Positions 27,673 through 64,000 of a DNA stretch of 64,000 bases are shown one piece after another; position 1 is the stretch's first letter; every line of letters begins with the position of its first letter. The notes beneath the pieces are model-generated. The model was not told the DNA's origin, did no database searches, and saw only the letters and a list, made by a program, of their open reading frames with translations. The translations under genes were made by a program, and so were the position numbers. This stretch comes from Acidimicrobiales bacterium. Its GTDB lineage: Bacteria; Actinomycetota; Acidimicrobiia; Acidimicrobiales; Bog-793. The stretch covers positions 9,710 to 73,709 of the forward strand of contig JBEKEM010000003.1 in NCBI GenBank assembly GCA_050013835.1. Reading direction: 5' to 3'.

Positions 27673-27755
27673 GACGGCTCCCCCGCCACGAGGCATTCAC
27701 CGCCGGAACGGCGAAGCGGGAATCGGGCGCGGGGCGGTCTGGAGAGCTCACGACG

Positions 27756-45845: not shown

Positions 45846-45878
45846 TTCTGAAGGACACGCCCAGGCGGTCGGAAAGGC

Positions 45879-46819: not shown

Positions 46820-47521
46820 GTGTTGACGGGCGTGCGACAAGACATCGCCTCGGTGCGGCAAAGGGATCCCGCCGCTCACTCGAAGCTCGAGATCGTGCTG
46901 TGCTACCCGGGGCTCCACGCCGTCTGGGGCCACCGACTGAGCCACTGGATGTGGGCCCACAGACTGAAACTGGCCGCCCGGGCGATCTCCGCCTTCGTCT
47001 GCACCTTGACGGGCGTCGACATCCATCCGGCAGCGACGGTCGGCCCGGGGCTGTTCATCGACCACGCCACCGGCGTCGTGATCGGCGAGACGGCCGAGAT
47101 CGGCGCCGACGTGACGATCTATCAGGGGGTCACGCTCGGCGGGACGAGTCTCGAGGCCGTCAAGCGTCACCCGACCGTCGAGGACCGCGTCACGATCGGC
47201 GCCGGGGCGAAGCTGCTCGGGGCGATCACCGTCGGCCACGACAGTCGCATCGGAGCGAACGCCGTCGTCGTGCACGACGTGCCGTCCAACTCCATCGTGG
47301 TCGGAGTGCCAGGACAGGTCATCGCCCGCAGCCGGCCCCACACGGCGGCCTCGCCGCCAGACTTGGACGAGACCCTGCTGCCCGACCTCATCGGTGTGAG
47401 CCTCGCGATGTTGCAGAAACGCGTCAACGAGCTCGAGAAAGTCGTGACCGGCCACGTCTCCGTCGCCCAGCTGCACCGCTCGGCGTCGGGGGTATGGTCC
47501 GGAGACGACTTCTCGATCTGA
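46820..47521 (+). CDS. cysE: serine O-acetyltransferase
   Basis: '[19 protein letters not shown]', hexapeptide repeats '[29 protein letters not shown]'. Confidence 0.9.
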
Positions 47522-47553: not shown

Positions 47554-47802
47554 TTGTCAGAGTCCGCAGCATCCGCCGCCGACAGGGTGCTCGACTGCGC
47601 TGGAATGTCGTGCCCGCTGCCGGTCCTTAAGACCGCGCAGGCGATCAAGGACCTCGCGCCCGGACAGGTTCTCGAGCTCCTCGCGACGGACCCGGGAGTC
47701 GAACCGGACATGCGGGCATGGACCAGGCGAACGGGCAACGAGCTATTGAGCGTCAGCAAGACAGATGAGGTCTTCCATGTGCTCATCCGCCGGGTGAAAT
47801 GA
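47554..47802 (+). CDS. tusA: TusA/SirA-family sulfurtransferase
   Basis: 'LDCAGMSCPLPVLK' (CPxP motif). TTG at 47554 lies 5 nt after GGGAGG. It is the C-terminal part of ORF 46900..47802. Confidence 0.8.
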   Translation: MSESAASAADRVLDCAGMSCPLPVLKTAQAIKDLAPGQVLELLATDPGVEPDMRAWTRRTGNELLSVSKTDEVFHVLIRRVK

Positions 47803-47811
47803 CCGGGACCG

Positions 47812-48198
47812 ATGACCTGGACTAAAGAGTCGCCCACCAAGATCCTCTACGTGCACACGCACGGGATCGATGACCCCGGGCGCTGCGCGACGCCGTTCTT
47901 CCTCGCGTCGGCCGCGGCGGCGATGGAGTTCGAGGTCATGATCTACTTCACGATGTTCGGGCCGACCCTTTTGCGCCGGGACGTCATCGACAAGATCGGC
48001 CCCAAGGGCGATCGGGGCCAGCCCCTGCGGCACTTCATCGAACAGGCCACCGGTCTCGGTGTCCGCCTGCTCGTCTGCCAGCCGTCACTCGACCTCAACG
48101 ACCTGAGTCTGGATGACCTGATCGACGGGGTCGAGGTGATCGGCGCGGCGACCTTCAACGACCTCGCAGCCGCCGCCGACGCCGTGGTCAGCTTCTAG
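47812..48198 (+). CDS. dsrE: DsrE/DsrF-like sulfur-relay family protein
   Basis: A 128-aa protein, 'KILYVHTHGIDDPGRCATPFFLA...RLLVCQPS'. This matches the size and Cys placement of the DsrE family. Confidence 0.7.
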   Translation: MTWTKESPTKILYVHTHGIDDPGRCATPFFLASAAAAMEFEVMIYFTMFGPTLLRRDVIDKIGPKGDRGQPLRHFIEQATGLGVRLLVCQPSLDLNDLSLDDLIDGVEVIGAATFNDLAAAADAVVSF

Positions 48199-48210: not shown

Positions 48211-48939
48211 ATGACCACCGTGCCTCGCCAGGAAATCGACGCCCACTACAAGACCTGGAACGTCGCCGGCCACGCGGACGTGCCTCACGAGGTCAAGGTG
48301 CGCCTGTTCGAGCAGGTGAAAGGTGACTTCCGGTTCGGCGACTACCTGCACGGCTGCTATGAGTGCGGCATCTGCGTCGGCGCCTGCCCGTCCGCCAAGT
48401 TCTACGACTTCAGTCCGCGCAGAATCGCGCAGGCGGCTGCGCGCGAGGACGTGGACCTCGTTTACCAGCAGATGCAGGAGGACATCTGGGAGTGCTCGCA
48501 GTGCTTCTCCTGCGTGCGTTGCCCGCGCGGCAACAACCCGGGCGGGATCATCACGATCATGCGGGAGGTGGCGGTGAAAAATGGCCTCGCCTCCGCCAAG
48601 GAAGCCCTTGTCGGCTACTCCCGGATCATCTACAAGATCATGTCCACCGGGACTCAGGTCTCGCCGGACATGCTCGGAAGGGACTCCTTCCCCGACTGGG
48701 GACCGGAGACCGCCGACGTGGCGGACAACCTCGACCTGTGGCGTCGCGCGCTGCCCCCCGAGACCATGCACACCACCTCAACCGGCTGGTCCGTCGCCGA
48801 GAGCACCCTTGTCGAGCTCTACCTCATCTGGATGGAGACCGGAGTTCTCGACATGATCGCCGAGGTCGACCCGGGCCTGCACACGATCCTGCTGGAGCTG
48901 ATGGAGGAACGCCTCGAGGAAGAGGGGATCGAGCCGTGA
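48211..48939 (+). CDS. shdrC1: sulfur-oxidising heterodisulfide reductase-like subunit C1 (2x[4Fe-4S])
   Basis: 'CYECGICVGACP' and 'CSQCFSCVRCP'. Confidence 0.8.
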   Translation: MTTVPRQEIDAHYKTWNVAGHADVPHEVKVRLFEQVKGDFRFGDYLHGCYECGICVGACPSAKFYDFSPRRIAQAAAREDVDLVYQQMQEDIWECSQCFSCVRCPRGNNPGGIITIMREVAVKNGLASAKEALVGYSRIIYKIMSTGTQVSPDMLGRDSFPDWGPETADVADNLDLWRRALPPETMHTTSTGWSVAESTLVELYLIWMETGVLDMIAEVDPGLHTILLELMEERLEEEGIEP

Positions 48940-50180
48940 CGATCCCCTTTGAGGCCCTGCGTCGCACGAGAGCCGCCGATGAACCCGTCACCGACCGGCG
49001 CGCCCTCGACGATCCCCGTGCCGAGCTCCTCGAACTGGAGCGCCGGGGTGAGCTGATCGTGCAGAAGATCGACCGGGAGGCCGTCTCGGTGTCGACGAAG
49101 TACGGACGCGTCAAGCGGATCCAAAAGTCGCACCTGTGGCATCACAAGTCCTGCGGCCAGTGCGGCCACATCCCGGGCTACTCCACCTCGATCTTCTGGG
49201 TGATGCGCAAGCTCGGCTACGACTACCACGACCCGCACGACCAGACCTCGTGCACTGCCTGGAACTACTACGCCAGCGCGACCTCCAACTCGGCGGCTCA
49301 GGCCGCGGTCGCCGTCCGCAACTTCGCGGCCGCCTACGAGACCGGATACTTCCCGCTCATCCACTGCGGCACCTCGTACGGCCACTACAAGGACGTGCGC
49401 GAGGAGCTCATCCGCTACCCCGAGCTCAGAGCCCAGGTCCGCGCCGTCATGGCAAGACTGGGCAAGCCGCTCGTGCTACCAGAGGAGATCGTCCACTACT
49501 CCGAGTGGCTGCACGCCCTGCGCGGCGAGATCGCCGCGCAGCGGGTGCGCGACGTGTCGCAGATCGCGGTCTCCGTCCACCCGGCGTGCCACTACCACAA
49601 GATCGTCCCGGGCGACGCGATCTACGACCCGGACATCTACGGCGGTCAGCGCACCGCCGTGGTGACCGGCCTCGCCGAGGCGCTCGGAGCCACGGTGCGC
49701 GACTACTCGACCTGGTTCGACTGCTGCGGGTTCGGCTTCCGGCACATCCTGGTCCAGCGTGACTTCAGCCGGTCCTTCGCCACACTCCGCAAGATCGAGG
49801 TCATGAAAGAGGAGGCCGACCCCGACGTCGTGCTGACCCACGACACCGGGTGCGTCACCACCCTCGACAAGAGCCAGTTCGCCGCCAGGGCCCACGGACG
49901 CAACGTCGGGCTGCCGGTGCTCAGCGACGCGCAGTTCGCGGCGCTGGCGTTGGGTGCGCACCCCTACCGGGTCTGCCAGCTGCACTGGCACTCCGCTGAC
50001 TACCGACCGCTCCTCGAGAAGATGGGCATCGACTGGGAGAAGGCGTGGGCCGAGTTCCAGAGTGATCTGCGCCGCCTCGAGTCGGGCGAGAAGCGCTATC
50101 TCGACTGGGATGACGCCGACGGCGTCAACGACAGCAACCGGCTCGAGAACTCTCCCGACAGGGACACACAGAACAGTTGA
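48936..50180 (+). CDS. shdrB1: heterodisulfide reductase-like subunit B1 (CCG domains)
   Basis: 'HKSCGQCGH...SCTAWNY' and 'HPACHYH...FDCCGFGFRH...HDTGCV'. GTG at 48936 overlaps the C1 stop. Confidence 0.8.
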   Translation: MTIPFEALRRTRAADEPVTDRRALDDPRAELLELERRGELIVQKIDREAVSVSTKYGRVKRIQKSHLWHHKSCGQCGHIPGYSTSIFWVMRKLGYDYHDPHDQTSCTAWNYYASATSNSAAQAAVAVRNFAAAYETGYFPLIHCGTSYGHYKDVREELIRYPELRAQVRAVMARLGKPLVLPEEIVHYSEWLHALRGEIAAQRVRDVSQIAVSVHPACHYHKIVPGDAIYDPDIYGGQRTAVVTGLAEALGATVRDYSTWFDCCGFGFRHILVQRDFSRSFATLRKIEVMKEEADPDVVLTHDTGCVTTLDKSQFAARAHGRNVGLPVLSDAQFAALALGAHPYRVCQLHWHSADYRPLLEKMGIDWEKAWAEFQSDLRRLESGEKRYLDWDDADGVNDSNRLENSPDRDTQNS

Positions 50181-50188
50181 GGTGACAA

Positions 50189-51259
50189 ATGTCGTCGACC
50201 ACGATCGCCGTCATCGGAGGAGGACCCGGAGGGCTGCGCGCCGCGCAGGGAATCGCCGACCTCGGCCAAGGGGTCGTGCTGGTCGAGAAGCTCGATCACC
50301 TCGGGGGCTCCCCGATCACCCAGAGGTACTACAGGCTGACCCCGCGCGGTGAGCTCGCGCAACCGCAGATGCAGCGGCTGATCGACCTCGTCACCGCCAA
50401 TCCGCTCACCGATGTCCGCTGCCAGACCGAACTCGTCGGCATGACGGGAGAGCCGGGGGCGTTTGCCATCACGCTGCGCGACGCACCGACCGGAAGCACC
50501 GAGACGGTCGAGTGCGGCGCACTCATCGTCGCCACCGGGTTCAGCCACTTCGACCCGGGTCGAGCCACCCAGATGTACGGGTACTTCGAGTTCCCCGACG
50601 TCATCACCCAGCCCGACCTCGAGGCCATGCTGTCCGATCACCGGGTGCTGCGCCCCTCCAACGGCCAGCCGCCAGAGCGGATCTGCTTCGTCCAGTGTGT
50701 CGGCAGCCGCGACCGGCAGATCGGCAACGAGTACTGCTCGAAGGTCTGTTGCGGAGTGGCGTCCAAGGAGGCGACCGAGATCCGGCAGCTTCTTCCGGAC
50801 TCGAAGGTGCTCATCTTCTACATCGACATGCGGACGTACGGCTACTGGGAGAACGAGATCTACTGGCCCGCGCAAGAACAGCACCACGTCCAGTACGTCA
50901 AGGGGCTGATCACCGAGGTCCTGCCAAAGGGTGACCGCCTGCTGGTGCGCGGCGAGGACACGACGATGGGTCGGCCGATGGAGGTGCTCATGGACCTCGT
51001 CGTGCTGTCGGTCGGCATGGAACCGTCACCGGGAACCCGCGAGCTCGCCAGGCTGCTCGGGGTGCGACAGAACAAGTTCGGCTTCATCGACGCCGTGGGT
51101 GCGCCACTCGATCCCGTCACGACCGACCGGGAAGGGGTCTTCGCCTGCGGTGCGGCGCTCGGCCCCGCCGATCTCGAGGACACCGTCTCCTCGGCGGCGG
51201 CGGCGGCCATGAGGGCCGTCGGCTTCCTGCGGTCCCGCGCCGTCGCCAAGGCAAACTGA
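50189..51259 (+). CDS. shdrA: heterodisulfide reductase-like subunit A (FAD, [4Fe-4S])
   Basis: 'IAVIGGGPGGLRAA', 'CFVQCVGSRD...EYCSKVCCG'. Confidence 0.85.
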   Translation: MSSTTIAVIGGGPGGLRAAQGIADLGQGVVLVEKLDHLGGSPITQRYYRLTPRGELAQPQMQRLIDLVTANPLTDVRCQTELVGMTGEPGAFAITLRDAPTGSTETVECGALIVATGFSHFDPGRATQMYGYFEFPDVITQPDLEAMLSDHRVLRPSNGQPPERICFVQCVGSRDRQIGNEYCSKVCCGVASKEATEIRQLLPDSKVLIFYIDMRTYGYWENEIYWPAQEQHHVQYVKGLITEVLPKGDRLLVRGEDTTMGRPMEVLMDLVVLSVGMEPSPGTRELARLLGVRQNKFGFIDAVGAPLDPVTTDREGVFACGAALGPADLEDTVSSAAAAAMRAVGFLRSRAVAKAN

Positions 51260-51260
51260 G

Positions 51261-52025
51261 GTGACGGTTCCCGCGATGGTCGGTCCCGTCGTCGACACGC
51301 TGAGCGCCCAGGAGTTCCAGCGCGAGATCCTGGAGCGGATCAGCGACACAGAGCTGCAGGTCATCGCCCGGGACGTCGAGCGCAAGTCGGCGGCACTGCG
51401 GGAGCTGTGCTCGGGAACCTCGCGCCCGTCGGACCGCGCCACGCTGCGCCAGGAGCTGCGCTGGGTGTTCGCGACCCGGCGGCGCGCCGACAGGATCCTC
51501 GACCTGGCCGGACCGGAGGCCCTCGCCGCGGCCATCGGTGGGCTGCTCGGCGACAGCGATCCGGTGCAGGACAGGCTGGACCGCTTCGTGGCCACATGGG
51601 AGAACCTCGTACCGGAGCCCGCGCCGGGGAGCTGCGGCTTCGAGCTGGCGGCCGAACTGCTGCACTTCATGTCGCCCGACCGGTACTGGTTGTGGACGAG
51701 GTGGATCTGGGATCCGGACACCCGGACCGGTGCACTGGCTCTCGTCACGACCGATGACGTCGACCTCGGCGAGGGGGACACAACAGGGGCGATGTACCTC
51801 ACGGTCGGGCGGGCGACCGCCTTCCTCGAGGAGACCGGCAAGGCGGCGGGTCTCACGACGGCGGGTCCCGGTCTTTTCGGCGTTGACGTCCTACTCGCCT
51901 CCGTCTACGCGGTGTACATGTACACGGTCCTGCGGCTGCGGATGAGCCGAGAGTTCAACCGGGTGATCCCGCCACTGCCCGATCTCGTGCGCCGCCTGCT
52001 CGGCGTCGACGACCGGGAGTCGTAG
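51261..52025 (+). CDS. conserved hypothetical protein in the sHdrH position
   Basis: A 254-aa protein with no cofactor motif. It occupies the position of the 'hyp'/sHdrH gene between hdrA and the next hdrC/B-like gene. Confidence 0.6.
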   Translation: MTVPAMVGPVVDTLSAQEFQREILERISDTELQVIARDVERKSAALRELCSGTSRPSDRATLRQELRWVFATRRRADRILDLAGPEALAAAIGGLLGDSDPVQDRLDRFVATWENLVPEPAPGSCGFELAAELLHFMSPDRYWLWTRWIWDPDTRTGALALVTTDDVDLGEGDTTGAMYLTVGRATAFLEETGKAAGLTTAGPGLFGVDVLLASVYAVYMYTVLRLRMSREFNRVIPPLPDLVRRLLGVDDRES

Positions 52026-52029
52026 AACC

Positions 52030-53337
52030 GTGCCGGTCGGAGGACGCAAGGTCCCGCCCGTTGTCGTCGAGAAGGAGACGGCCACCGTCGCCTCCACCAT
52101 CTCGGGACGCGAGGTCGAGCTCGGGGCGACGTGGAACCGGATGTTCGAGCCACGGGTCCTCACGAACTACGGCCCCGACGGCTTCGTCCCGATCTCGGCG
52201 CTGCCCGGTGGAGAGTCCCTCGAGTGGTGCTTCGGCTGCGGCAAGTGCATCCCGGCCTGCCCCGTCGACATGGTGGGCGACTACGGCCCGCGCAAGCTCC
52301 ATCGCAAGGTCCAGACGGGCACCGATTTGTTCACCGATTCCGACCTGTGGCTCTGCACCGCCTGCGGGAACTGCCTGCGAGTCTGCCCGAAGCGGGTCGA
52401 CATGCTCACGGTCATGCCGGCTGTACGCGAGGTCGCGCTGGCCGCCGGCGCGGTGCCGGCCGAGTTGCAGGACGTCTTCGAGAAGACCTTCCGGCAAGGC
52501 AACGCCCTCGGCCAGAGCCAACGGCGGCGGGCGCAGTGGGCGGACGCCGCCGGGGTCCCGGTCCGGATCCTCGCCAAGGACCCGGCGCCCGTCGACGTCC
52601 TTTTCTACGTGGAGGACTACTGGAGCTTCCACCCCCGCGGCCAGGAGGCGGCGCGCGCCTTCGCGAGAGTCGCGACCGCACTCGGCGTCGATTGGGCGAT
52701 CCTCGGCCCGGAAGAGAAGACGCTCGGCGACTCGCAGCGCCTCGCCGGCGAAAAGGGCCTTTTCGAGGCGCTGGTCGAGGACGCCGCGGCGACGCTGGCG
52801 AACTACGAGTTCAACCGGATCGTGACACCCGACCCACACGCCTTCAACGCGCTCGTCAAGGAGTACCCCGGGCGCGGGCACCGCTACGAGGCGCTCCATT
52901 ACACGCAGCTGCTCGCGCCGCTCGTCGGCCAGATCCGGTGGGAGCGGGAGCTCGATCTCAAGGTGACGTTCCACGACCCGTGCTACCTGGGGAGGCAGAA
53001 CGGCGAGTACGACGCCCCCCGGACGCTTATCGAGGCCATCCCCGGCGTGCAGCTGGTCGAGATGGACCGCTGCCGCCAGAACGGCTACTGCTGCGGTGGC
53101 GGGGGCGGCGGCATGTGGCTCGACGGCTTCACGGGCGACCACACGAGCGAACGGCTGTCCGAGCGCCGGGTCCGCGAGGCGGCCCAGACCGGGGCCGACG
53201 TGCTGGCGGTTTGCTGCCCCTACGAGGTGTCCCGGTTCTCCGACGCCGCCAAGGCGACCGGTCACGACGAGCTCCGGGTCTGCGACGTCATCGAGCTGGT
53301 CGACGAGGCGATGCGGGGCGCAACGGACCATGGCTGA
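52030..53337 (+). CDS. shdrB3: fused HdrC/HdrB-like Fe-S protein (sHdrB3 type)
   Basis: 'CFGCGKCIPACP' and 'CTACGNCLRVCP' come first. One Cys-free CCG-like half follows. The last part is one intact CCG domain, 'HDPCYLGR...YCCGGGGG...AVCCPYE'. Confidence 0.8.
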   Translation: MPVGGRKVPPVVVEKETATVASTISGREVELGATWNRMFEPRVLTNYGPDGFVPISALPGGESLEWCFGCGKCIPACPVDMVGDYGPRKLHRKVQTGTDLFTDSDLWLCTACGNCLRVCPKRVDMLTVMPAVREVALAAGAVPAELQDVFEKTFRQGNALGQSQRRRAQWADAAGVPVRILAKDPAPVDVLFYVEDYWSFHPRGQEAARAFARVATALGVDWAILGPEEKTLGDSQRLAGEKGLFEALVEDAAATLANYEFNRIVTPDPHAFNALVKEYPGRGHRYEALHYTQLLAPLVGQIRWERELDLKVTFHDPCYLGRQNGEYDAPRTLIEAIPGVQLVEMDRCRQNGYCCGGGGGGMWLDGFTGDHTSERLSERRVREAAQTGADVLAVCCPYEVSRFSDAAKATGHDELRVCDVIELVDEAMRGATDHG

Positions 53338-54358
53338 GCCGCTGCGCGTCATCGACTTCGGATCCCGCCCGCCGTTGCGCTCGCAGACGCTGTGGCACGC
53401 CGTCGGTTACGGGGTGTCGGCCGGCGCGCCGGCGACGCTCTCCTTCGTCCGCCCGGCCGTCCCGTACGTCTGTATCGGTTTTCACCGCCCCCTCGACGAG
53501 GTGGACCCCGACTTCTGCCGGGCGGAGGGCCTGCCGGTCCTGCGGCGGATGGTCGGCGGCGGTCCGGTGTACCTGGACTCAGGCCAGCTGCTCTTCCAGA
53601 TTTGCCTGCCCGCCGCCTCGGTGCCGGCGGTCCGGCCCAAGGCCCTGCGCCAGCTGCTCGAACCCGCTGTAGCGGCCTTCCGCGCCGTCGGGGTGCGGGC
53701 CGTGCTCGACGAGGACTCGGAGATCTGCCTCGGCGACGCCAAGATCTGCGGACACGGGGCCGGGCAGATCGGTGACGCCGTCGTCGTCTGCGGCAACCTG
53801 ATCGAGCGCTTCGACCACGCGCGGGCGACGCGGGTGCTCGCGATGACCGATCCGGCCCAGCGGGATCAGACGCTCGCCCTCATGCGCCGCTTCGTGGCCG
53901 CGACCCCGGTCGATCCCGTCAGCTTCCGGGCCGCCATGGTCGCCGCCTACGCCGCCAGGCTCGGGCTCACCGCCCGGCTGGGGGAACTGGACGACGTCGA
54001 GCACGCCGCGCTCACCTCGCTCGACGAGCAATTCGTCAGCAACAACTGGCTGGCCGGACCGGGCCGGCCGGGCCCGCAAGCCGGTCCCGGACCGGTCGCG
54101 CGCCAGGTCAAGGTGCGCGCCAGGATCTGGACGCTTAGCGCGACCCACGAAGGTGCGCAGGTCGCGGCCACCGTGGTTCGAGGAACGGTCCTCGCGGCAC
54201 GACTGCACGACCCCGGACTCAACGGTCTGGCCGTAAGAGCGGAACAGGCCCTCGTCGGGATCCCGCTGCGGTCGGTCGGCGACGTGCTGGCGGGCTTCGG
54301 CGACCCCGGACGAAGGCTGGCGGCCGCCTTCGCCACAGCCGAGCCTGAAAGGTCGTGA
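53330..54358 (+). CDS. lipoate--protein ligase family protein (copy 1)
   Basis: BPL/LplA/LipB-type fold: 'VCIGFHRPLDEV...GLPVLRRMVGGGPVYLD', candidate Lys in 'GDAKICGHGAGQ'. ATG at 53330 inside ORF 53096..54358. Confidence 0.7.
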   Translation: MAEPLRVIDFGSRPPLRSQTLWHAVGYGVSAGAPATLSFVRPAVPYVCIGFHRPLDEVDPDFCRAEGLPVLRRMVGGGPVYLDSGQLLFQICLPAASVPAVRPKALRQLLEPAVAAFRAVGVRAVLDEDSEICLGDAKICGHGAGQIGDAVVVCGNLIERFDHARATRVLAMTDPAQRDQTLALMRRFVAATPVDPVSFRAAMVAAYAARLGLTARLGELDDVEHAALTSLDEQFVSNNWLAGPGRPGPQAGPGPVARQVKVRARIWTLSATHEGAQVAATVVRGTVLAARLHDPGLNGLAVRAEQALVGIPLRSVGDVLAGFGDPGRRLAAAFATAEPERS

Positions 54359-54822
54359 TGGAACCGACGGCGCGCCTTGTCGTGGCCGGCTTCCCGCTCG
54401 CGCTCGACCGCCTCTACCAAGCCGAGACGCACATGTGGGTGCTCCCGACGGGACCCGGCCGGGTGAGAATCGGGATGGACCCGGTCGGCCTCGAGACGAG
54501 CGGCAGCCTCGCCGAGCTGTCCCTTGACCCGGTCGGGACCGAGCTCCACGCGGGCCGGCCGTTCGGCCAGCTCGAAGCGGCCAAGTTCGTTGGCCCGCTC
54601 CTCAGCCCGGTTTCCGGCGCCGTCGTGGAGACGAACGAAGAGGTCGTCGCCGACGCGAGCCTCGCCGTGCGGGACCCGTACGGGGCCGGCTGGCTGATCG
54701 GGGCCAGCCTGGGCGACGCCGATGCCGAACTGTCGGGGCTGCTCGCCGACCCGACCGAGATCACCACCTGGTTCGCCGCCAGGATCGCCCGTTACCGGCA
54801 CGAGGGCGTGATCGCGCAGTGA
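54355..54822 (+). CDS. lbpA: GcvH-like lipoate-binding protein (LbpA)
   Basis: 'FGQLEAAKFVGPLLSPVSGAVVETN...DPYGAGW' follows the H-protein lipoyl-lysine pattern. Confidence 0.75.
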   Translation: MMEPTARLVVAGFPLALDRLYQAETHMWVLPTGPGRVRIGMDPVGLETSGSLAELSLDPVGTELHAGRPFGQLEAAKFVGPLLSPVSGAVVETNEEVVADASLAVRDPYGAGWLIGASLGDADAELSGLLADPTEITTWFAARIARYRHEGVIAQ

Positions 54823-55808
54823 CCGGCGCGCCGACGGTCCCGACCCCCGCCGGGGTGCGACGGGCGAACTTCCCCAACGTGATGGACTTCTACGCGCCCG
54901 GACTCAGACGCTGGCAGACCTCCGAATGGGTCCCGGCCAGTCCCCGCCGGTTCCTTGCCGTGTCGGTGACCGGCTCGGCCTGCGCGCTGCGCTGCGACCA
55001 CTGCCACACGAAGTTGCTCGACGGCATGACGTCGCCCGGCGCGGGCGAGGACCTGTACACGCTGGCGGCACGACTTCACGAGGAGGGCTGCGAGGGCCTG
55101 CTCGTGTCCGGCGGCTCCACCCGCCGCGGCGCCGTCCCGTTGCTGGCGCATCTCGGGCACATCCGACGGATCCGCGAGCAGCTCGGGATGAGGGTCGTCG
55201 TGCACTCGGGCCTCGCCTCCCCCGAGCTCGCGGCCGGGCTCGCGGCCTCCGGCGTCGACGGGGTGATGATCGACGTCATCGGGTCCGACGAGACGCTGCG
55301 CGACGTCTACCACCTCGACTTGACGGTCGAGGACGTGGACCGCACTCTGGGGCTGCTTACCGACAATGGGTTGCGGGTCATCCCGCACATCGTGCTCGGC
55401 TTGCACTTCGGACGTTTTCTCGGCGAGTACCGGGCGCTCGAGATGGTCACCGGTTACCCGGTGTCGACCCTCGTTCTCGTGGTGCTCGTGCCGCTCGCCG
55501 GCACGCCGATGGCGCACGTGGCCCCGCCCCCGCTCGACCGGGTGGCCGGGTTCTTCGCCGCCGCCCGGCTGGCCGCGCCGGATACGACGATCAATCTCGG
55601 CTGCGCCCGTCCGCTCGGCCCCGCCAAGCGCGCGCTTGACGACGCCGCGATCGATCTCGGCCTGAACGGCATCGCCTACCCGGCCGAGGGCGCCATCGAG
55701 TACGCGAGATCGCGCGGCCTCACTGTGCGGCTCGTCGAGTCCTGCTGCTCGCTCACCTGGAGCGGGGTGGACGATCGCGTCCCCGCCACCGTGTCGGTGG
55801 CAAGGTGA
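54819..55808 (+). CDS. radical SAM protein (LipS-type lipoyl synthase candidate)
   Basis: 'GSACALRCDHCHT' contains a CX3CX2C motif. It sits between lbpA and the second ligase. Confidence 0.7.
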   Translation: MTGAPTVPTPAGVRRANFPNVMDFYAPGLRRWQTSEWVPASPRRFLAVSVTGSACALRCDHCHTKLLDGMTSPGAGEDLYTLAARLHEEGCEGLLVSGGSTRRGAVPLLAHLGHIRRIREQLGMRVVVHSGLASPELAAGLAASGVDGVMIDVIGSDETLRDVYHLDLTVEDVDRTLGLLTDNGLRVIPHIVLGLHFGRFLGEYRALEMVTGYPVSTLVLVVLVPLAGTPMAHVAPPPLDRVAGFFAAARLAAPDTTINLGCARPLGPAKRALDDAAIDLGLNGIAYPAEGAIEYARSRGLTVRLVESCCSLTWSGVDDRVPATVSVAR

Positions 55809-56911
55809 AGAAAACCTGGCGGCTCCTCGCCGACGACGGGGTCGGGGCGGCCGACGGCCTCGCGCTCGACGAAGCGCTGATGGGCGGGTATGCCCGGGGC
55901 GAACCGGACCGCCCGCCCACGCTTCGCCTCTACAGCTACCGCGACCACTGCGCCCTCGTCGGCCGGTATCAGAACCTGGAAGCGGAGATCGACCTCGCGG
56001 CCTGCCGCCGCACCGGCACCGAGGTTAACCGCCGACCGACCGGCGGTGGCGCGATCATCATGGGCTCGGGCCAACTGGGGATCGCCTACCTGGACCGGGC
56101 ACCGACGGTCAAGCGGCCCCGGGAGATCATCGAGGAGTTCTCGGCGGCGCTGGCGGCGGGACTCGCCCGGTTGGGCATCACCGCCAGCTTCCACGGCAAG
56201 AACGACCTCGAAGTCGGTGGTCGCAAGATCGCCGGTCTCGGCCTGTTCGTCGACCCGGCCGGCGCCATGCTCTTCCACGCGAGCGTGCTCGCCGACCTGG
56301 ACGTCGCGCTCATGGTGCAGCTGCTGCGGATCCCCGCGGCCAAGCTCGCCGACCGCGCCTTCACGGCGATAAGCGCGCGGACCACGACCGTCGCGGCCGA
56401 GACCGGCGCCCCCTGCGACGCGGCGACACTGCGCCCCGCGATCGCCGAGGGGTTCGCGACGACCTTCGGGGTCGACCTCGTGCCCGGAACGCCCGACGAG
56501 GAGGAGCGGGCACGTGCCGGGGCTCTCGCCACCGGCCGGTACCGGTCGCAGTCCTGGTTGAACGAGCGGAGCGTCGCGGTGGACGCCAGTGGCTCCGCCA
56601 TGGTGAAGACACCAGCCGGGCTGGCCAGGATCTTCCTCACGACCCACGGTGACGTGGTCAAGAGCGCGATGGTCGTCGGGGACTTCAACGAGCTGCCACC
56701 GGCCCTCGCGGCCATGGAGTCCGGGCTGCGCTGGCAGCGCCTCGATCACGGGGCCGTCGCCGCCGTCGTCGCGGCTTCCGGCGCCGCCGCCGCGCTCGGG
56801 GTTCCCGCTGAGCGGCTCATCGCCGCCGTGATCGAGGCGGGCCGGCAGGCGGGCGAACAGGCGACGGCGCCCGGGGGCGGGAGTGCCCGTCTCGGCGCCG
56901 AGGCGAGCTGA
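55805..56911 (+). CDS. lipoate--protein ligase A family protein (copy 2)
   Basis: 'LRLYSYRDHCALVGRYQ', 'RRPTGGGAI', 'GKNDLEVGGRKIAGLG'. Confidence 0.8.
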   Translation: MKKTWRLLADDGVGAADGLALDEALMGGYARGEPDRPPTLRLYSYRDHCALVGRYQNLEAEIDLAACRRTGTEVNRRPTGGGAIIMGSGQLGIAYLDRAPTVKRPREIIEEFSAALAAGLARLGITASFHGKNDLEVGGRKIAGLGLFVDPAGAMLFHASVLADLDVALMVQLLRIPAAKLADRAFTAISARTTTVAAETGAPCDAATLRPAIAEGFATTFGVDLVPGTPDEEERARAGALATGRYRSQSWLNERSVAVDASGSAMVKTPAGLARIFLTTHGDVVKSAMVVGDFNELPPALAAMESGLRWQRLDHGAVAAVVAASGAAAALGVPAERLIAAVIEAGRQAGEQATAPGGGSARLGAEAS

Positions 56912-56922: not shown

Positions 56923-58008
56923 ATGGTGGTCCGCGAGCGCCCGACGCCGCCTGCCGCCCCGCGGCCGGTCAAGACCAGCCCGGAATACGTGCGCATCTCG
57001 ATGGCGAGCGCGATCACGCTACAGATGTGCTCCGGCCGGTTCAGCCGCGACTTTCCGTTCGGGGGCATCAACCTCCTGCTGAACTACGGGGCCGGGTGCC
57101 GATCCGACTGCGGCTACTGCGGGCTCGCCCGCAGCCGTCCGGGCGACTACGCGGACAAGTCGTTCATCCGGGTGGCGTGGCCGCTGGTACGGACCGACGA
57201 GCTCGTGGCACGCCTCGCGCGGTTCGAACCGGCCCTGACCCGCCTGTGCATCTCCATGGTCACTAACGGTCGCGCCTACCGCGACACCTGCGAGATCGCG
57301 CGTCGGATCACCGAACGAGTCCGGACGCCGACATCGGTGCTCGTCGCACCGCCGAACATCACGCGTGCGCGGCTGGAGAACCTGCGTTCGATAGGCGTCG
57401 GGATGATCGGCGTCGGGCTCGACGCGGTCACGGAGGATCTGTTCCGGGCGGCCCGCACCGACGTCCCGGCCGGCGGTCTCAGGTGGGATAAGTACTGGGA
57501 GGTCATCGGCGACGCGCGCGAGATCTTCGGACCGTGGAACGTCAACGTCCACACCCTCGTCGGCTTGGGTGAGACCGACAAGGATCTGCTCACCTTGTTC
57601 GTCAAGCTCCGCGACCGGCAGATCTCGACGTACCTGTTCTGCTTCAACCCGGAGCCCGACTCCCGGATGGCCGCCCGACCGCAACCGTCACTCCGTCGCT
57701 GGCATCGGGTGCAGCTCGCCAGGCACCTGATCGAGACGGTCGGCTACGGACTGGATCGCTTCGATTTCGATGCCGCCGGCGGGATCGCCCGTGTCGACGC
57801 CGACCGGCCCTTCCTCGAGGCCGTCGTCGACGACGGCGCCGCCTTCATGACCAACGGCTGTCCGGGTGACGACGGAGGACCCGGGTGCACCCGGCCCTAC
57901 GGCTCCTACCGGCCGACCGAGCCGTTCCGCGACTACCCGTTCGCGCCCTCAGCCGGCGATCTCGCGGAGATCCGCCGGCAGCTGCGGCTGGGCGATCTCA
58001 GCGAATGA
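56923..58008 (+). CDS. radical SAM protein (biotin/lipoyl-synthase-like, LipS-type candidate)
   Basis: 'GAGCRSDCGYCGL' contains a CX3CX2C motif. The C-terminus has a Cys-containing segment, 'NGCPGDDGGPGCTRPYG'. Confidence 0.7.
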   Translation: MVVRERPTPPAAPRPVKTSPEYVRISMASAITLQMCSGRFSRDFPFGGINLLLNYGAGCRSDCGYCGLARSRPGDYADKSFIRVAWPLVRTDELVARLARFEPALTRLCISMVTNGRAYRDTCEIARRITERVRTPTSVLVAPPNITRARLENLRSIGVGMIGVGLDAVTEDLFRAARTDVPAGGLRWDKYWEVIGDAREIFGPWNVNVHTLVGLGETDKDLLTLFVKLRDRQISTYLFCFNPEPDSRMAARPQPSLRRWHRVQLARHLIETVGYGLDRFDFDAAGGIARVDADRPFLEAVVDDGAAFMTNGCPGDDGGPGCTRPYGSYRPTEPFRDYPFAPSAGDLAEIRRQLRLGDLSE

Positions 58009-58029: not shown

Positions 58030-58818
58030 GTGCGAATCGTCGTGGCCCTGAAGACGGTTCCCGATCTCGTCGAGGAGATCGAGCTCACCGCCGACGAGAC
58101 CGCCATCGAGCGCGAGTACCTGAAGTTCGCGCTCAGCGAGTGGGACGCCCAGGCTCTCGAGGAGGCACTGCTCCTCAAGGACACCAGCGGGGCCGAGGTC
58201 GTGGCCGTCGGCCTAGCCGACGACCCCGAGATCGACCAGACCCTCTACACGGCGCTCGCCAAGGGGGCGGACGCGGCGGTCAAGCTCACCGACGCGGGCG
58301 CCGCTTCCCGCGAGCCGGCGGCGATCCCGGTCGCCGCCCGGGCCGCGCTGCTGGCGGGATACCTCGCCTCCGAACCGGCCGACCTCGTGATCTCCGGCGT
58401 GCAGGCGGCGGACGACCCGGACGGGCAGCTTCCGCCGACGCTCGCCGCACTGCTTGACCTGCCCCACGTCTCGGTGGTCGTAGCCGTCGAAGCATCCGCC
58501 GGCTCGGTCACCGTGCGCCAGGAGTTCGCCGGGGGCGTGTCCCACGAACTCGAGGTGCACCTGCCCGCCGTGATCGGTGTCCAGTCCGCCCGGCAGACCC
58601 CCCGCTACGCGCCGATCGCGCGGATCCGCCAGGCGATGCAGGCCGGTGGACTCACCGAGCTGGCGGTGACGTCCCCGGGTCCGGAAGAAGGCGTCGTCCT
58701 GCGCCGGATGCACCGACCCGAGACGACCGGTCGGGCCGAGATGCTGACGGGCAGCCCCGGAGAAGTCGCCGACCAGATCGTGGAACTGCTTCGTGACCGT
58801 GGCCTCGTGAAAGGGTGA
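58030..58818 (+). CDS. etfB: electron transfer flavoprotein beta subunit
   Basis: 'MRIVVALKTVPD...LSEWDAQALEEAL'. 262 aa. Its end overlaps etfA. Confidence 0.85.
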   Translation: MRIVVALKTVPDLVEEIELTADETAIEREYLKFALSEWDAQALEEALLLKDTSGAEVVAVGLADDPEIDQTLYTALAKGADAAVKLTDAGAASREPAAIPVAARAALLAGYLASEPADLVISGVQAADDPDGQLPPTLAALLDLPHVSVVVAVEASAGSVTVRQEFAGGVSHELEVHLPAVIGVQSARQTPRYAPIARIRQAMQAGGLTELAVTSPGPEEGVVLRRMHRPETTGRAEMLTGSPGEVADQIVELLRDRGLVKG

Positions 58819-59792
58819 GTGTCGCCGTGAGCCGCAATGTGATGGTGCTCGCCGAGCACACGACAACGGAGATTTCCGAGGGAACCTACGAGCTGATCGG
58901 CAAGGCGCGCGAGCTCGCCGAGGCGCTCGGGGGCCTGACCGAGGTGGTCCTTTTCGGCCCGTCCGAGCTCGCCGGCCGGCTCGGAGGCGCCGATGTCGTC
59001 GTCTGTATGGAACACCCGGCCCTGGCGGAGTACCAGCCGGAGGCCTACGAGCGGGCGCTCATGGAGGTGCTGTCACAACGATCCCCGCGGCTGTTGCTGA
59101 TGTCCAATGCCACCGTCGGCTTGGACCTCGGGGCTGCGCTCGTCGTGCGCTGGCACGCGCCGTTGGCCGCCTACGTCAACGCCCTGGGGATCCGTGACGG
59201 CACCGTGACGGCGACGGCGAAGATCCTCGGCGGGAAGGTGCTCGCCGACCTCGAGCTGCCCGGGGACCGCGCGATCGCCACCGTCCTCGGAGGCGCCTTC
59301 ACCGCGGAAACAGGCCTGTCCCCCGCCACCGAGGTCGTCGTTCTCGCCCCGCCGGCCGGACTCGACACGCTGCGGATGTCGCTTCGCCGGGTCATCGCGG
59401 CAGAAGCCGGTGACGTCGACATCACGACGGCCGACATGCTCGTCTCCGTCGGCCGCGGGATCGAGTCAGCGGACAACCTGGAGATCGTGACGGAGCTCGC
59501 CGACGCGCTCGGCGTGCCTCTCTCGGCGTCCCGACCGGTGGTCGACGCCGGATGGCTGCCGAAGACGCGCCAGGTGGGTCAGTCGGGCCTGAAGGTGAAG
59601 CCCCGCGTGTACCTGGCCCTCGGCATCTCGGGAGCCCCCGAGCACCTGGAGGGGATGCGGAATGCCGAGCTGATCCTCGCCTGCAACACGGACCCCGGCG
59701 CGCCGATCTTCGATGTCGCCCACTACGGGACGACGGTCGATCTGTTCGATCTCGTCCCCGAGCTCGTCAGCCGGGTGCGCGCCTTGCCATGA
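58815..59792 (+). CDS. etfA: electron transfer flavoprotein alpha subunit
   Basis: 'VSVGRGI', 'QVGQSGLKVKPRVYLALGISGAPEHLEGM', 'NTDPGAPIF'. Confidence 0.85.
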   Translation: MSVAVSRNVMVLAEHTTTEISEGTYELIGKARELAEALGGLTEVVLFGPSELAGRLGGADVVVCMEHPALAEYQPEAYERALMEVLSQRSPRLLLMSNATVGLDLGAALVVRWHAPLAAYVNALGIRDGTVTATAKILGGKVLADLELPGDRAIATVLGGAFTAETGLSPATEVVVLAPPAGLDTLRMSLRRVIAAEAGDVDITTADMLVSVGRGIESADNLEIVTELADALGVPLSASRPVVDAGWLPKTRQVGQSGLKVKPRVYLALGISGAPEHLEGMRNAELILACNTDPGAPIFDVAHYGTTVDLFDLVPELVSRVRALP

Positions 59793-62066: not shown

Positions 62067-62501
62067 ATGACCTCAGTCAACAACTGCGATATTCCCGACG
62101 ATCTGTACTACGTCGTGGAGAAACACGTGTGGGCGCGTCCCGAAGGCGAGCTCGTGACGGTCGGGATGACCGACGTCGCCCAGCACATGGCCAAGACCAT
62201 CGTGGCGGTGACACCGAAGGCGGTGGGCGCGGCGGTGAAAAAGGGGCGCAATATCGCGACGGTCGAGAGCGGCAAGTGGGTCGGCGCCGTCTCCGCCCCG
62301 GTGAGCGGCGAGATCGTCGCCGTCAACGAGGCGCTCGCCACCTCGCCGGGCCTCATCAACTCGGACCCGTACGGCGCGGGCTGGGTCATCCGGCTGCGAC
62401 CGACCGACTGGGGGGCCGACGCCACCGATCTCGCCACCGGCCCGACGGGCGTCGAGGCCTACCGCCGCTTCCTCGAAGCCGAGGGCATCTCCTGCGAATG
62501 A
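62067..62501 (+). CDS. lbpA: GcvH-like lipoate-binding protein (second LbpA)
   Basis: 'HVWARPEG...VTVGMTD', 'IATVESGKWVGAVSAPVSGEIVAVN', 'DPYGAGWV'. Confidence 0.8.
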   Translation: MTSVNNCDIPDDLYYVVEKHVWARPEGELVTVGMTDVAQHMAKTIVAVTPKAVGAAVKKGRNIATVESGKWVGAVSAPVSGEIVAVNEALATSPGLINSDPYGAGWVIRLRPTDWGADATDLATGPTGVEAYRRFLEAEGISCE

Positions 62502-62684: not shown

Positions 62685-63215
62685 ATGGACGACACGGACA
62701 GGAAGGTCACCACCACCGCCGACGCCTCCGACGGCGACGAGCCGAAGCGAATGTCCGTCATCTGCTGGAGCAACGACCTCGACCGGGTCTGGCCGGTCAT
62801 GATCCTCGCCACGACTGCGGCCGCTTCGGGTCTCGAAGTCGACGTCTTCTTCACGTTCTGGGGGTTGCGGGTGCTGCAGAAGAACGGTAAGCGGGTCACC
62901 GGCGACAACTGGATGCAAAAGGCCGAATCGTTGTTCGACCGAGGAGGGAACGAGCACCTCAAGCTGAGCAAGTTGCACTTCGGGGGGATGGGTACCTCCA
63001 TGATCAAGATGCTGGCGAAAGAGCACAACGTCGCCAGCGTGCCCGAGCTGATGGAGATGGCGATCGAGGCAGGCGTGCGACTTCATCCCTGCCAGATGAC
63101 CATGGACCTCTACGGGTTGAAGCCCTCCGATTTCGTCGACGGGGTGCAGCCCACGCTCGGCGCGGCGAGCTTCATCGACATGGCCGCCCGTTCCGACATT
63201 CAGCTCTTCATCTGA
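62685..63215 (+). CDS. DsrE/DsrF/DrsH-like family protein (long form)
   Basis: 'MSVICWSNDLDRVWPVMILATTAAASGLEVDVFFTFWG...RLHPCQMTMD'. ATG at 62685 follows GGGGAG. Confidence 0.65.
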   Translation: MDDTDRKVTTTADASDGDEPKRMSVICWSNDLDRVWPVMILATTAAASGLEVDVFFTFWGLRVLQKNGKRVTGDNWMQKAESLFDRGGNEHLKLSKLHFGGMGTSMIKMLAKEHNVASVPELMEMAIEAGVRLHPCQMTMDLYGLKPSDFVDGVQPTLGAASFIDMAARSDIQLFI

Positions 63216-63289
63216 ACCGGCACTCCGACGAAGGAAACCCGGCGATCCGAGCAGGCGAATGTCCACTGTCGCTACTACACTGAATCAGT

Positions 63290-63295
63290 TACAAT
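63290..63295 (+). promoter_or_regulatory. candidate -10 hexamer (TACAAT) for the encapsulin transcript
   Basis: TACAAT lies in an AT-rich patch 290 nt upstream of the encapsulin ATG. The -35 element is weak. Confidence 0.3.
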
Positions 63296-63585
63296 AGTGG
63301 AGAATGGCTGTACAACAGGGGCGCCCTGGTCGGTGGGTCACGGGGGTTGGAATCAGCCAATCCGGGCGACGACCGGGTCACCTTGGCGCCGGATGTCACG
63401 CCCGCCCCGGCGGACGGGTGCCGACGCCGGCAGAGATGGCGTTCGACCCGGAGGATCGTTGGCAATGCGGCGCACACCATTGCGGACCTCGCGCCAGATG
63501 ACTCCTCCGGCGCGTGACGGCTTCCACACGACTCACGACCTCCCGGTCAGCACACCGGGGCAGTCCCCGAGGGAAAGGTCCGGCA

Positions 63586-64000
63586 ATGCCCAGATCAGCG
63601 ACAAGTAGCACGCCGACGAATCTCGCCCTGAGCGATACCGCGGCACGTCAACTCGCGAATGTCTCGAAGAGCACCGCGCAGCTCGACACCATCACACCGC
63701 GATGGCTGATCAAGATGCTGCAGTGGGTGCCGGTCGAGGCCGGAAGCTACCGGCTGAACCGCGTCAAGGACTCGGGGGTCACCACCGTCGCCACGTCGGC
63801 GCGGGATGGAGCCGAGCTGCCGACGACACACCTCGGCTACTACGAGACACCTCGTGAGTACTTCCTCGACACGGTGGCCACCGTCCTCGACGTCCCCACC
63901 CGGATCTCTGACCTGTACGGCAGCCCGTTCGACCAGATCGCCGAGCAGGTCCGGCTCACGGTCGAGACGGTGAAGGAGCGCCAGGAGACCGAACTACTCA
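63586..64000 (+). CDS. family 2 encapsulin nanocompartment shell protein, N-terminal fragment (runs off 3' edge)
   Basis: This ORF is absent from the supplied track because it has no stop inside the window. My translation reads 'MPRSATSSTPTNLALSDTAARQLANVSKSTAQLDTITPRWLIKMLQWVPVEAGSYRLNRV...YYETPREYFLDTVATVLDVPTRISDLYGSPFDQIAEQVRLTVETVKERQETELL'. That matches the conserved N-arm pattern of family 2 (SrpI-type) encapsulins as I remember it. GAGGGAAAGG precedes the ATG. Confidence 0.8.
   Translation, partial: MPRSATSSTPTNLALSDTAARQLANVSKSTAQLDTITPRWLIKMLQWVPVEAGSYRLNRVKDSGVTTVATSARDGAELPTTHLGYYETPREYFLDTVATVLDVPTRISDLYGSPFDQIAEQVRLTVETVKERQETELL

Follow-up and report, generated by a model that had tools for sequence, protein, structure and literature searches.

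Why should the gene of a desulfurase encapsulin stand at the end of a gene cluster for sulfur oxidation? The question is raised by a stretch of 64,000 nucleotides (nt) from an Acidimicrobiales bacterium (GenBank assembly GCA_050013835.1, contig JBEKEM010000003.1, positions 9,710 to 73,709; hereafter the window), in which an incomplete open reading frame (ORF) for an encapsulin shell (enc) follows a type II sulfur-oxidising heterodisulfide-reductase-like (sHdr) system with its lipoate-binding proteins (LbpA). According to our analysis, the shell gene is followed by genes for a cysteine desulfurase cargo (cyd) and a regulator (rrf2), and the resulting enc-cyd-rrf2 operon is joined to the 3' end of the sHdr-LbpA cluster. 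We established the identities of these genes, the intactness of shell and cargo and the presence of loading motifs in the cargo, and found the synteny to recur in two unrelated shell clades. What is new here is that a family 2A encapsulin is repeatedly joined to a system for dissimilatory sulfur oxidation and to the carriers of that system. Whether the two parts work as one pathway is, in our judgement, an evenly balanced matter, and the evidence on both sides is set out below.

An initial annotation of the window had reported an ORF that starts at 63586, is still open at the window edge and has the N-terminal signature of a family 2 shell, probably of subtype 2A. Both points held. An ATG at this position on the plus strand opens a stop-free frame of 138 codons up to 64000, and its translation includes the signature strings, AARQLANVSKSTAQLDTITPRWLIKMLQWVPVEAGSYRLNRV and YYETPREY...RISDLYGSPFDQIAEQVRLTVETVKERQE. 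The fragment matched the family 2A profile NF041162 (encap_f2a) with E=1e-47, residues 15-138 forming one continuous alignment with profile positions 1-124 of 295, and the Pfam SrpI-like family PF19307 with E=7e-21. The family 2B model (450 positions) aligns to the shell in two separate stretches that skip its insertion; the cyclic-nucleotide (cNMP)-binding insertion is therefore absent from the shell. Solved family 2B shells are 470-477 amino acids (aa) long, against 313 aa for this shell.

The sequence past 64000 was taken from eight metagenome contigs (L001-L008; handles of this kind denote contigs and their loci), which were found via the DsrE2-family protein encoded at 62685-63215. Seven of them are 100% identical to the window across overlaps of 3.2-11 kb, and the eighth (L003) has one mismatch (range 99.99-100%). 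In these contigs the shell gene runs on without frameshift or truncation to what would be 64527 in window numbering, and encodes an intact protein of 313 aa. At full length the shell scored 483.3 bits against NF041162 (cut-off 380), residues 15-308 covering the whole profile (1-295 of 295). It is 69% identical over 305 residues to the solved desulfurase encapsulin of Acinetobacter baumannii (8T6R; E=1.5e-145) and matches SrpI of Synechococcus elongatus (6X8M) with E=1.5e-133. The profile searches, which might have pointed to another family, place the shell in family 2A, and these matches, far beyond chance, confirm it as a genuine family 2A encapsulin. By homology to the solved shells 8T6R and 6X8M, it has the HK97 fold; assembly as a T=1 particle, encapsulation of cargo and deposition of sulfur are predicted from the 69% identity to the characterised system. 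Taken on its own, the shell is an ordinary member of family 2A.

A cysteine desulfurase with a disordered N-terminal targeting domain had been expected as cargo, and a protein of precisely this kind is encoded after the shell. The shell was also thought to close the gene string; this has to be corrected, as cyd and rrf2 follow on the same strand in the identical contigs. The start of cyd overlaps the shell stop by 26 nt. Its product of 580 aa reached 557 bits against the SufS model and 796.2 bits against NF041166 (family 2A cargo), marginally under the cut-off of 800. The catalytic domain (residues 174-575) matches solved SufS-type enzymes and carries the motif SGHK with the lysine that binds pyridoxal phosphate (PLP), as well as the catalytic-cysteine motif HHCAQP. 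The first ~175 residues are rich in proline and alanine and form a disordered N-terminal loading domain, in which we found counterparts of both motifs described for encapsulin-associated desulfurases (Nichols et al., 2021): LTRLVTEAYG (residues 24-33) corresponds to the published LARLANEFFS, and PSFYFIED (residues 147-154) to the published SPYYFLDG (AASPYYFLDG-like). The shell would package the SufS-type enzyme by means of this domain. The regulator encoded next has its best specific similarity to CymR and IscR, and the genes 3' of rrf2 are unrelated and lie on the opposite strand. In L015, the closest species representative, the Rrf2 protein is 96% identical to that of the window, and the identities of the structural proteins encoded with it are lower, at 65-88%.

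Upstream of the shell, the window contains a full sHdr/LbpA/Etf module and two DsrE-family genes (47812-48198 and 62685-63215), as the initial annotation had it; tusA (47554-47802) is an addition to its gene list (Table 1). All genes from 45879 onward lie on the plus strand, with intergenic gaps of at most 32 nt from cysK to emo and wider ones further on (112 nt before lbpA2, 183 nt before dsrE2B and 370 nt before the shell); the GTG start of shdrB1 overlaps the stop of shdrC1. Type II sHdr was defined by shdrC1B1AHB3 plus etfAB in a single syntenic cluster (Tanabe et al., 2024), which is the arrangement present here, with shdrC1B1AHB3 (48211-53337) and etfBA (58030-59792) on one strand. The type II accompaniments found are emo, TusA, a DsrE3A-like protein, two GcvH-like proteins and two LplA-B_cat genes; 3MC3, the best solved relative of the DsrE3A-like protein, has been cited as DsrE3A (Tanabe et al., 2024). 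Some assignments are less firm. LipS1 and LipS2 have their best matches in the right families, yet both scores fall under the curated cut-offs, and shdrH had no Pfam or NCBIfam match in the profile searches. The emo product (ETF:(methyl)menaquinone oxidoreductase, EMO), with three clear hydrophobic segments and possibly more in its first 215 residues, is putatively assigned by its architecture and its position directly after etfA, and its role would be the one proposed in the literature. In known systems, persulfide sulfur is handed on by TusA and DsrE proteins to sHdr-LbpA for oxidation to sulfite, and EtfAB/EMO have been proposed to pass the electrons to menaquinone; Actinobacteriota are a known host phylum of type II sHdr (Tanabe et al., 2024). 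From the gene content, we predict that this cluster oxidises sulfane sulfur to sulfite.

Table 1. Features of the sulfur locus, in window numbering (scores and E-values from profile or structure-database searches).
Feature	Position	Strand	Evidence
cysK (O-acetylserine sulfhydrylase), first of the string	45879-46817	+	TIGR01139, 478 bits (cut-off 351); Pfam PALP
cysE (serine O-acetyltransferase)	46820-47521	+	TIGR01172, 239.6 bits (cut-off 210.65); 2 nt after cysK
tusA (sulfur carrier of 82 aa; start codon TTG; active-site motif CPLP)	47554-47802	+	PF01206, E=7.5e-23
dsrE3A-like sulfurtransferase	47812-48198	+	Pfam DsrE and DrsE_2; best solved relative 3MC3, E=5.8e-21
shdrC1 (two-[4Fe-4S] ferredoxin-like subunit)	48211-48939	+	Fer4_8/17/9; 69-92% in related clusters
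shdrB1 (CCG-domain catalytic subunit)	48936-50180	+	CCG, E=6e-9; 68-92% identity in relatives
shdrA (FAD/Fe-S flavoprotein)	50189-51259	+	Pyr_redox_2; core matched by HdrA and HdrA2 models, E=2e-66 to 3e-68
shdrH (conserved hypothetical of sHdr clusters)	51261-52025	+	place between shdrA and shdrB3 kept in all related loci
shdrB3 (HdrC2-like ferredoxin and HdrB2-like CCG fusion), type II marker	52030-53337	+	Fer4 and CCG in one protein of 435 aa
sLpl (lipoate-protein ligase-like), 342 aa in identical contig L001	53330-54358	+	LplA-B_cat, E=1.5e-20
lbpA1 (lipoate-binding, GcvH-like)	54358-54822	+	GCV_H, E=3.9e-21
lipS1 (radical-SAM lipoyl synthase)	54819-55808	+	Radical_SAM; NF053742, 228.5 bits, borderline (cut-off 230)
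second lipoate-protein ligase-like gene	55805-56911	+	LplA-B_cat, E=7e-34
lipS2 (radical-SAM lipoyl synthase)	56923-58008	+	NF053743, E=1.8e-53, 181.9 bits, under cut-off 270
etfB	58030-58818	+	ETF, E=3.5e-23
etfA, 316 aa in L001	58842-59792	+	ETF and ETF_alpha
emo (membrane-anchored ETF:(methyl)menaquinone oxidoreductase-like), 721 aa	59789-61954	+	Fer4 dicluster and CCG
lbpA2 (second GcvH-like)	62067-62501	+	GCV_H, E=4.8e-35
dsrE2B-like sulfur carrier, directly upstream of the shell	62685-63215	+	DrsE_2, E=2.3e-46; NF047629 (DsrE2), E=6.5e-31; solved relatives 3PNX, 2QS7
370-nt spacer upstream of the shell	63216-63585	.	conserved non-coding
enc (family 2A shell), first 138 residues	63586-64000	+	NF041162, PF19307
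cyd (cargo cysteine desulfurase), 580 aa	64502-66244, past the edge	+	SufS, NF041166
rrf2 regulator, 186 aa	66296-66856, past the edge	+	TIGR00738, 112 bits

The closest shells in the databases are 75-83% identical and come from metagenome-assembled genomes (MAGs) of Acidimicrobiales/Acidimicrobiaceae. Among the best 80 species-representative genomes (GTDB), the sHdr module accompanies the shell in only four, namely those with a shell identity of at least 76%, all of them Acidimicrobiaceae; the remaining 76 belong to Actinomycetota and Proteobacteria (Acinetobacter among them), and their shells have the canonical neighbour cysE, either alone or together with cysK. Four further contigs, with shells 75-81% identical, have the order lipS/etfBA/emo/lbpA2/dsrE2B, shell, desulfurase, and their downstream flanks differ. 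The linkage was also surveyed from the sHdr side by a LipS1-anchored scan of metagenome contigs, in which loci with at least 1.3 kb downstream of dsrE2B were counted: the shell is present in 11 of 21 such loci and absent from 10 (peat and soil contigs). The sHdr-linked shells (n=18; Acidimicrobiaceae, peat and soil) are monophyletic in 100 of 100 neighbour-joining (NJ) bootstraps. Synteny between encapsulin and sHdr, which had been noticed in a single genome, thus extends to four species representatives, four further contexts and 11 metagenome loci, and to the second clade described below. In three loci (L012, 13921-14901; L017; L018), a second family 2A shell gene lies a few kb from the sHdr-linked one and adjoins a PALP gene (cysK-like, about 50% identical). 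This second shell never groups with the linked clade (0/100) and clusters with the unlinked Acidimicrobiales shells L051 and L067; the two genes may stand for either two separate compartments or one mixed shell.

The second clade of linked shells is distant and Thermoleophilia-like. Its shells are 58-63% identical to that of the window, form a group with full support (100/100, NJ) and are set apart from the first clade by many unlinked shells in NJ trees. In L163, a distant sHdr cluster met in the LipS1 scan, whose shell has its nearest named relatives in Solirubrobacteraceae and Patulibacter, the sHdr subunits are 37-74% identical to those of the window, and lbpA2 is followed by the shell (~60% identical) and by a desulfurase with both loading motifs; two starts are conceivable for the shell ORF, a GTG that overlaps the stop of lbpA2 and an ATG 23 nt past this stop. 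L175 has the order emo-lbpA2-(24-nt gap)-enc-cyd inside the sHdr operon. In L179, dsrE2-cysK-enc-cyd is divergent from tusA-dsrE3A-shdrC1B1AHB3, with 228 nt between them; in L178, dsrE2 is divergent from tusA-cysK-enc, and the 10 kb upstream are free of sHdr. The context is canonical in L177 (serine acetyltransferase (SAT)-cysK-enc-cyd). A cysteine-supply gene stands beside enc-cyd in L175, L177, L178 and L179, and not in L163 or L176. In this second clade, a DsrE2 gene is found in or beside the enc operon. The same partners (encapsulated desulfurase, TusA/DsrE2 carriers, type II sHdr and, in most loci, an enzyme supplying cysteine) are thus joined in several gene orders in two unrelated shell lineages, a pattern that would be expected from functional coupling more than from accident.

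That the adjacency is a vertically inherited historical accident of no functional meaning seems to us extremely improbable. The first clade could reflect a single ancestral event, and the arrangement has been lost repeatedly; against this, the link recurs in the second shell clade, beyond many unlinked shells and in different gene orders, and the junction has been kept while the downstream flanks vary.

Two loci of the second clade contain further sulfur genes. After enc-cyd, L175 (12639-15234) encodes a cystathionine beta-synthase (PALP+CBS) and a Cys/Met-metabolism PLP enzyme of the cystathionine gamma-lyase/synthase family, which we predict to form a reverse-transsulfuration route to cysteine. 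In the Solirubrobacteraceae MAG with locus L176, a metallo-beta-lactamase-fold/rhodanese fusion (445-1848, minus strand) lies divergently beside enc-cyd. It resembles the persulfide dioxygenase-rhodanese architecture, has only a weak match to the Blh sulfur transferase/dioxygenase model and might be one more connection of the compartment with the oxidation of sulfane sulfur.

The loci that lack the shell are informative as well. In L106 (18497-19306), whose sHdr cluster is closely related to that of the shell-bearing L096, the shell and the first two-thirds of the cargo have been lost; cargo residues 395-579 remain, 226 nt after dsrE2B, and this piece is a deletion remnant. In the shell-less L101 (16359-17792), L111 (18807-20294) and L108 (1-1300; gene order different), a free SufS-family desulfurase, ~33% identical to the cargo and without the long N-terminal domain, is encoded on the minus strand beside dsrE2B. 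L101, L111 and L106 are among the 10 shell-less loci of the LipS1 scan; L108 is additional. In view of the free desulfurases and the L106 remnant, the association of desulfurase, DsrE2B and sHdr is therefore broader than the shell. We also considered DsrE2B as an encapsulin-specific accessory in the clade of the window; dsrE2B stays at the end of shell-less sHdr clusters, and the idea was rejected.

A free desulfurase at the same place in shell-less relatives would also be compatible with a role in cofactor maturation. The desulfurase would then supply sulfur for the Fe-S clusters of sHdr and EMO and for those consumed by LipS1 and LipS2 when lipoylating LbpA, and the cluster indeed already has maturation genes of its own (two ligases, LipS1 and LipS2). 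An encapsulated desulfurase is, however, shielded from SufE/SufU acceptors and has been found experimentally to deposit elemental sulfur. Moreover, no SufE, SufU, SufBCD or IscU gene was seen in the locus, and cysteine-supply genes, TusA and DsrE2 sit with enc even where sHdr is not nearby (L178). We regard this explanation as improbable.

The junction itself, i.e., the spacer between dsrE2B and the shell, bears on the question of regulation. In the subclade of the window, L009, L015, L115 and L145, about 320 nt of it are conserved with 72% column identity; this block is non-coding, because single-base indels occur among the orthologues. It includes an invariant AT-rich box, ACTACACTGAATCAGTTA (63274-63291), containing a perfect 11-bp palindrome, ACTGAATCAGT; the spacer also has a TTCGAC box (63442-63447) and a Shine-Dalgarno sequence, GAGGGAAAGG. 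The TTGAC-like box and the Shine-Dalgarno sequence are kept in nine relatives; other members of the clade have short gaps of 170-220 nt, from which the invariant box is missing. The conserved block may comprise a long leader and an operator, which the Rrf2 encoded downstream would perhaps bind. Because of the separation of 370 nt from dsrE2B with a conserved promoter-like box, the shell probably begins its own transcript, enc-cyd-rrf2, in this genome.

Several other candidates for this region were dropped. An ORF at 63297-63608 has no Pfam match, and the single-base indels among orthologues argue against coding. The palindrome ACTGAATCAGT occurs once in the window, even when two mismatches are allowed, which speaks against a shared operator for cysK, dsrE2B and enc. 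A structured RNA leader was not supported either: the covariation term that RNAalifold computed from five orthologous leaders was positive and hence unsupportive, an Rfam search of the 370-nt gap and of 43000-64000 gave nothing relevant at E<=1, and we make no claim of RNA structure. Scans for sigma-70 promoters and intrinsic terminators around dsrE2B, enc and cyd gave nothing above shuffled background. As a side observation, an AT-rich patch upstream of cysK (45808-45860), in an otherwise GC-rich spacer, has a 7-bp inverted repeat (GTATGTC...GACATAC), and its half-site ATGTCC/GGACAT is also present near ~63254 (upstream of the shell) and ~62610 (upstream of dsrE2B); this was noticed by eye only, and no claim is made.

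The 370-nt gap and the conserved upstream region of the shell's own fit a co-regulated sulfur island in which there is no direct flux, the encapsulin would store or buffer sulfur in limitation or redox stress, and both systems would share a response to sulfur status, e.g., via Rrf2. This agrees with the CymR/IscR-like regulator encoded after the cargo, with the lack of a shell in half of the related sHdr clusters and with the response of known systems, which sulfur starvation induces. The gene orders in relatives are harder to accommodate. In L163 and L175, the shell starts at most 24 nt after lbpA2, inside a tightly packed sHdr operon, and in L179 and L178, DsrE2 or TusA is encoded in or directly beside the enc operon. 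Repeated, differently arranged links to the same partners exceed the usual effect of shared regulation, and the linked shells form a lineage apart from the canonical paralogue in the same loci. We therefore consider a purely regulatory link unlikely, albeit the strongest of the alternatives.

The string begins at 45879 with cysK and cysE, as stated in the initial annotation, and the distance from the start of cysK to that of the shell is 17,707 bases. The annotation had likened this to a split srpGHI arrangement, a comparison that holds only loosely. The S. elongatus SrpI-CyD system (6X8M/6X8T) resembles the one described here in its family 2A shell, in both cargo motifs and in the association of cysK-like and cysE-like genes. 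The difference is that cysK/cysE of the window are not adjacent to the shell and lie 16.8 kb upstream of it, with 17 genes between. Canonical adjacency is seen in unlinked relatives, e.g., L014, L020-L022 and L177. In other Actinomycetota, cysK genes adjoining unlinked family 2A shells are 76-78% identical to the cysK of the window, a hint that they have a common ancestry. On the other side, order and orientation are not those of the canonical loci (L014 has cysK and cysE as a divergent pair, L177 has cysE-cysK-enc), and cysK-cysE and the shell occur in all four combinations of presence and absence among related sHdr clusters. For these reasons, a simple insertion of sHdr into a cysK-cysE-enc unit was rejected. 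Of the Acidimicrobiaceae loci, about half have a cysteine-supply gene together with enc-cyd.

With cysK-cysE at the head of its operon, the locus could also be read in reverse, as assimilatory: with electrons from Etf, sHdr would reduce the sulfur of sulfite or thiosulfate to sulfide or to sulfane sulfur bound to a carrier, CysK would fix the product into cysteine and the encapsulin would bank the surplus. In the literature, Hdr acting with TusA and DsrE has been given a hypothetical reductive role in an archaeon, and what type II sHdr does is on less firm ground than the function of type I (Tanabe et al., 2024). Nevertheless, type I is proven to be oxidative and organisms with type II are known sulfur oxidisers (Tanabe et al., 2024); the coupling of EtfAB/EMO to menaquinone likewise favours electron flow from sulfur to quinone, as judged from redox potentials. 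Reverse operation thus appears very improbable to us.

Storage of crystalline elemental sulfur by a desulfurase encapsulin has been shown experimentally: the encapsulated enzyme makes alanine and deposits zero-valent sulfur (Benisch et al., 2024). The remobilisation of this sulfur was stated to be unknown (Benisch, Andreas & Giessen, 2024), and the only retrieval candidate named so far is a co-encoded rhodanese; four operon types have been described, consisting of shell and desulfurase with or without rhodanese and serine acetyltransferase (Benisch et al., 2024). The A. baumannii system (8T6R) and that of the window share the enc-cyd pair, a SufS-like cargo whose long N-terminal domain is disordered, and an SAT in the wider locus. 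The Acinetobacter operon, however, has the order rhodanese-SAT-enc-cyd, whereas here there is no rhodanese and a DsrE2B-type carrier is encoded directly upstream of the shell; in addition, a 15-kb type II sHdr/LbpA/Etf cluster lies between cysK-cysE and the shell, and Rrf2 follows the cargo. The mycobacterial encapsulin MMP-I (9KSL, 8WOL, 8WON; E about 1e-124) is likewise an actinobacterial family 2A shell with a desulfurase cargo, and we know of no sHdr linkage for it. As in known type II sHdr-LbpA clusters, etfAB, emo, lbpA, ligase genes, candidate lipS1/lipS2, tusA and dsrE3A lie in one syntenic cluster with the core genes and the sHdrB3 fusion; the window and about half of its relatives differ from those clusters by the attached encapsulated-desulfurase operon.

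The supposition of the initial annotation that a link between encapsulin and sHdr had not been described is borne out by literature searches on encapsulin with sHdr, TusA or DsrE, which gave no such paper. In full-text literature, from which most subscription journals are missing, nothing relevant was found on encapsulin together with sHdr, heterodisulfide reductase, TusA or DsrE, nor, within the same coverage, on sHdr or LbpA together with cysteine desulfurase; the one co-mention of an encapsulin concerns a family 1 ferritin-type encapsulin in an archaeon. Two published encapsulin neighbourhood surveys list no sHdr, DsrE, TusA, LbpA or ETF genes, and a 2025 review adds none; published neighbourhood statistics list desulfurase, SAT, rhodanese, ABC transporter, LysR, HTH_3 and PALP. 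Conversely, the survey of sulfur transferases accompanying sHdr (Tanabe et al., 2024) does not mention cysteine desulfurase once.

If the attached operon and the sHdr cluster do work as one pathway, it may run as follows. CysE and CysK would make cysteine, a task that cystathionine beta-synthase and the cystathionine gamma-lyase-like enzyme may take over in L175. The encapsulated desulfurase would convert L-cysteine to L-alanine, by homology with the A. baumannii and S. elongatus systems, and the abstracted sulfur would be laid down in the shell as poly-persulfide or elemental sulfur, a sequestered zero-valent pool. DsrE2B, TusA and DsrE3A would mobilise this sulfur as protein persulfides, replacing the rhodanese of the proteobacterial operons in the case of DsrE2B/TusA; LbpA and sHdr would oxidise the carrier-borne sulfur to sulfite, and the electrons would pass via EtfAB and the membrane protein EMO to menaquinone. 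From gene context, we infer the storage of sulfur in this shell, its transfer to DsrE2B/TusA, the direction of flux and the co-regulation. The comparative data fit a compartment that would feed TusA/DsrE/LbpA-sHdr, as the initial annotation had suggested.

Purple sulfur bacteria form protein-coated sulfur globules by the oxidation of sulfide or thiosulfate, which are periplasmic in Allochromatium, and a relay of Rhd-TusA-DsrEFH-DsrC leads from the globules to reverse Dsr (rDsr). The likeness is that stored zero-valent sulfur would be mobilised via TusA/DsrE-type carriers to a cytoplasmic sulfite-forming enzyme; the globules are a functional analogue only, with no homology between the storage structures. 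Here, the store would be a cytoplasmic HK97-fold shell of 24 nm filled enzymatically from cysteine, and the oxidising enzyme is sHdr-LbpA, not rDsrAB. We tentatively propose, at somewhat less than even confidence, that in some Actinomycetota the desulfurase encapsulin may be a protein-bounded counterpart of the sulfur globule, drained by DsrE2B/TusA into type II sHdr-LbpA, so that its sulfur is respired to sulfite.

Several points weigh against a single pathway. The shell is dispensable for sHdr function, as about half of the closely related sHdr clusters are without it, and co-transcription of shell and sHdr is unlikely in the window, given the 370-nt gap and the promoter-like box. Sulfur starvation induces the systems of S. 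elongatus and A. baumannii, which fits sulfur economy better than dissimilatory oxidation. Making cysteine only for desulfuration would cost one acetyl-CoA per sulfur atom, and a protein carrier would need access to sulfur enclosed within the shell. That the two linked clades are independent derives from NJ trees of one protein, and the functional claims derive from gene context.

No further sulfur genes were found in the other 45 kb of the window, which encode molybdoenzymes, enzymes of purine catabolism and of molybdenum cofactor (Moco) synthesis, and a transporter of the molybdate type. Genes for three paralogous aspartate/ornithine carbamoyltransferases and for a carbamate-kinase-like protein (5814-6986, 14876-15853, 15882-16832 and 13914-14864, all on the minus strand) are interspersed with three xanthine-dehydrogenase-family molybdoenzymes (9021-11594, 27249-30692 and 30793-33402). 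Together with XdhC, amidohydrolases, adenine deaminase and a purine/cytosine permease in the same region, they make up a large island for the catabolism of purines or N-heterocycles, after which follow the Moco genes MobA, MoaC and MoeA and the molybdate-type ABC transporter. A gene at 4653-5669 (minus strand), located between housekeeping genes, encodes a protein in which an N-terminal ArdC domain is joined to an IrrE/M78 peptidase domain, as is typical for anti-restriction proteins of mobile elements.

If encapsulin and sHdr do form one pathway, the encapsulin field would gain the missing remobilisation route, since the loci name specific retrieval candidates, DsrE2B and TusA, and a defined sink, sHdr-LbpA; type II sHdr, in turn, would gain a physiological source of sulfur in heterotrophs. 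Even if the link should be only regulatory, it would still be a new type of family 2A neighbourhood that was missed by the published surveys. The linked arrangement occurs in Acidimicrobiaceae from peat and soil and in Thermoleophilia-like bacteria and is tied to both the synthesis and the desulfuration of cysteine, which points to organic sulfur or captured sulfide as the feedstock, a question that bears on sulfur cycling in peatlands.

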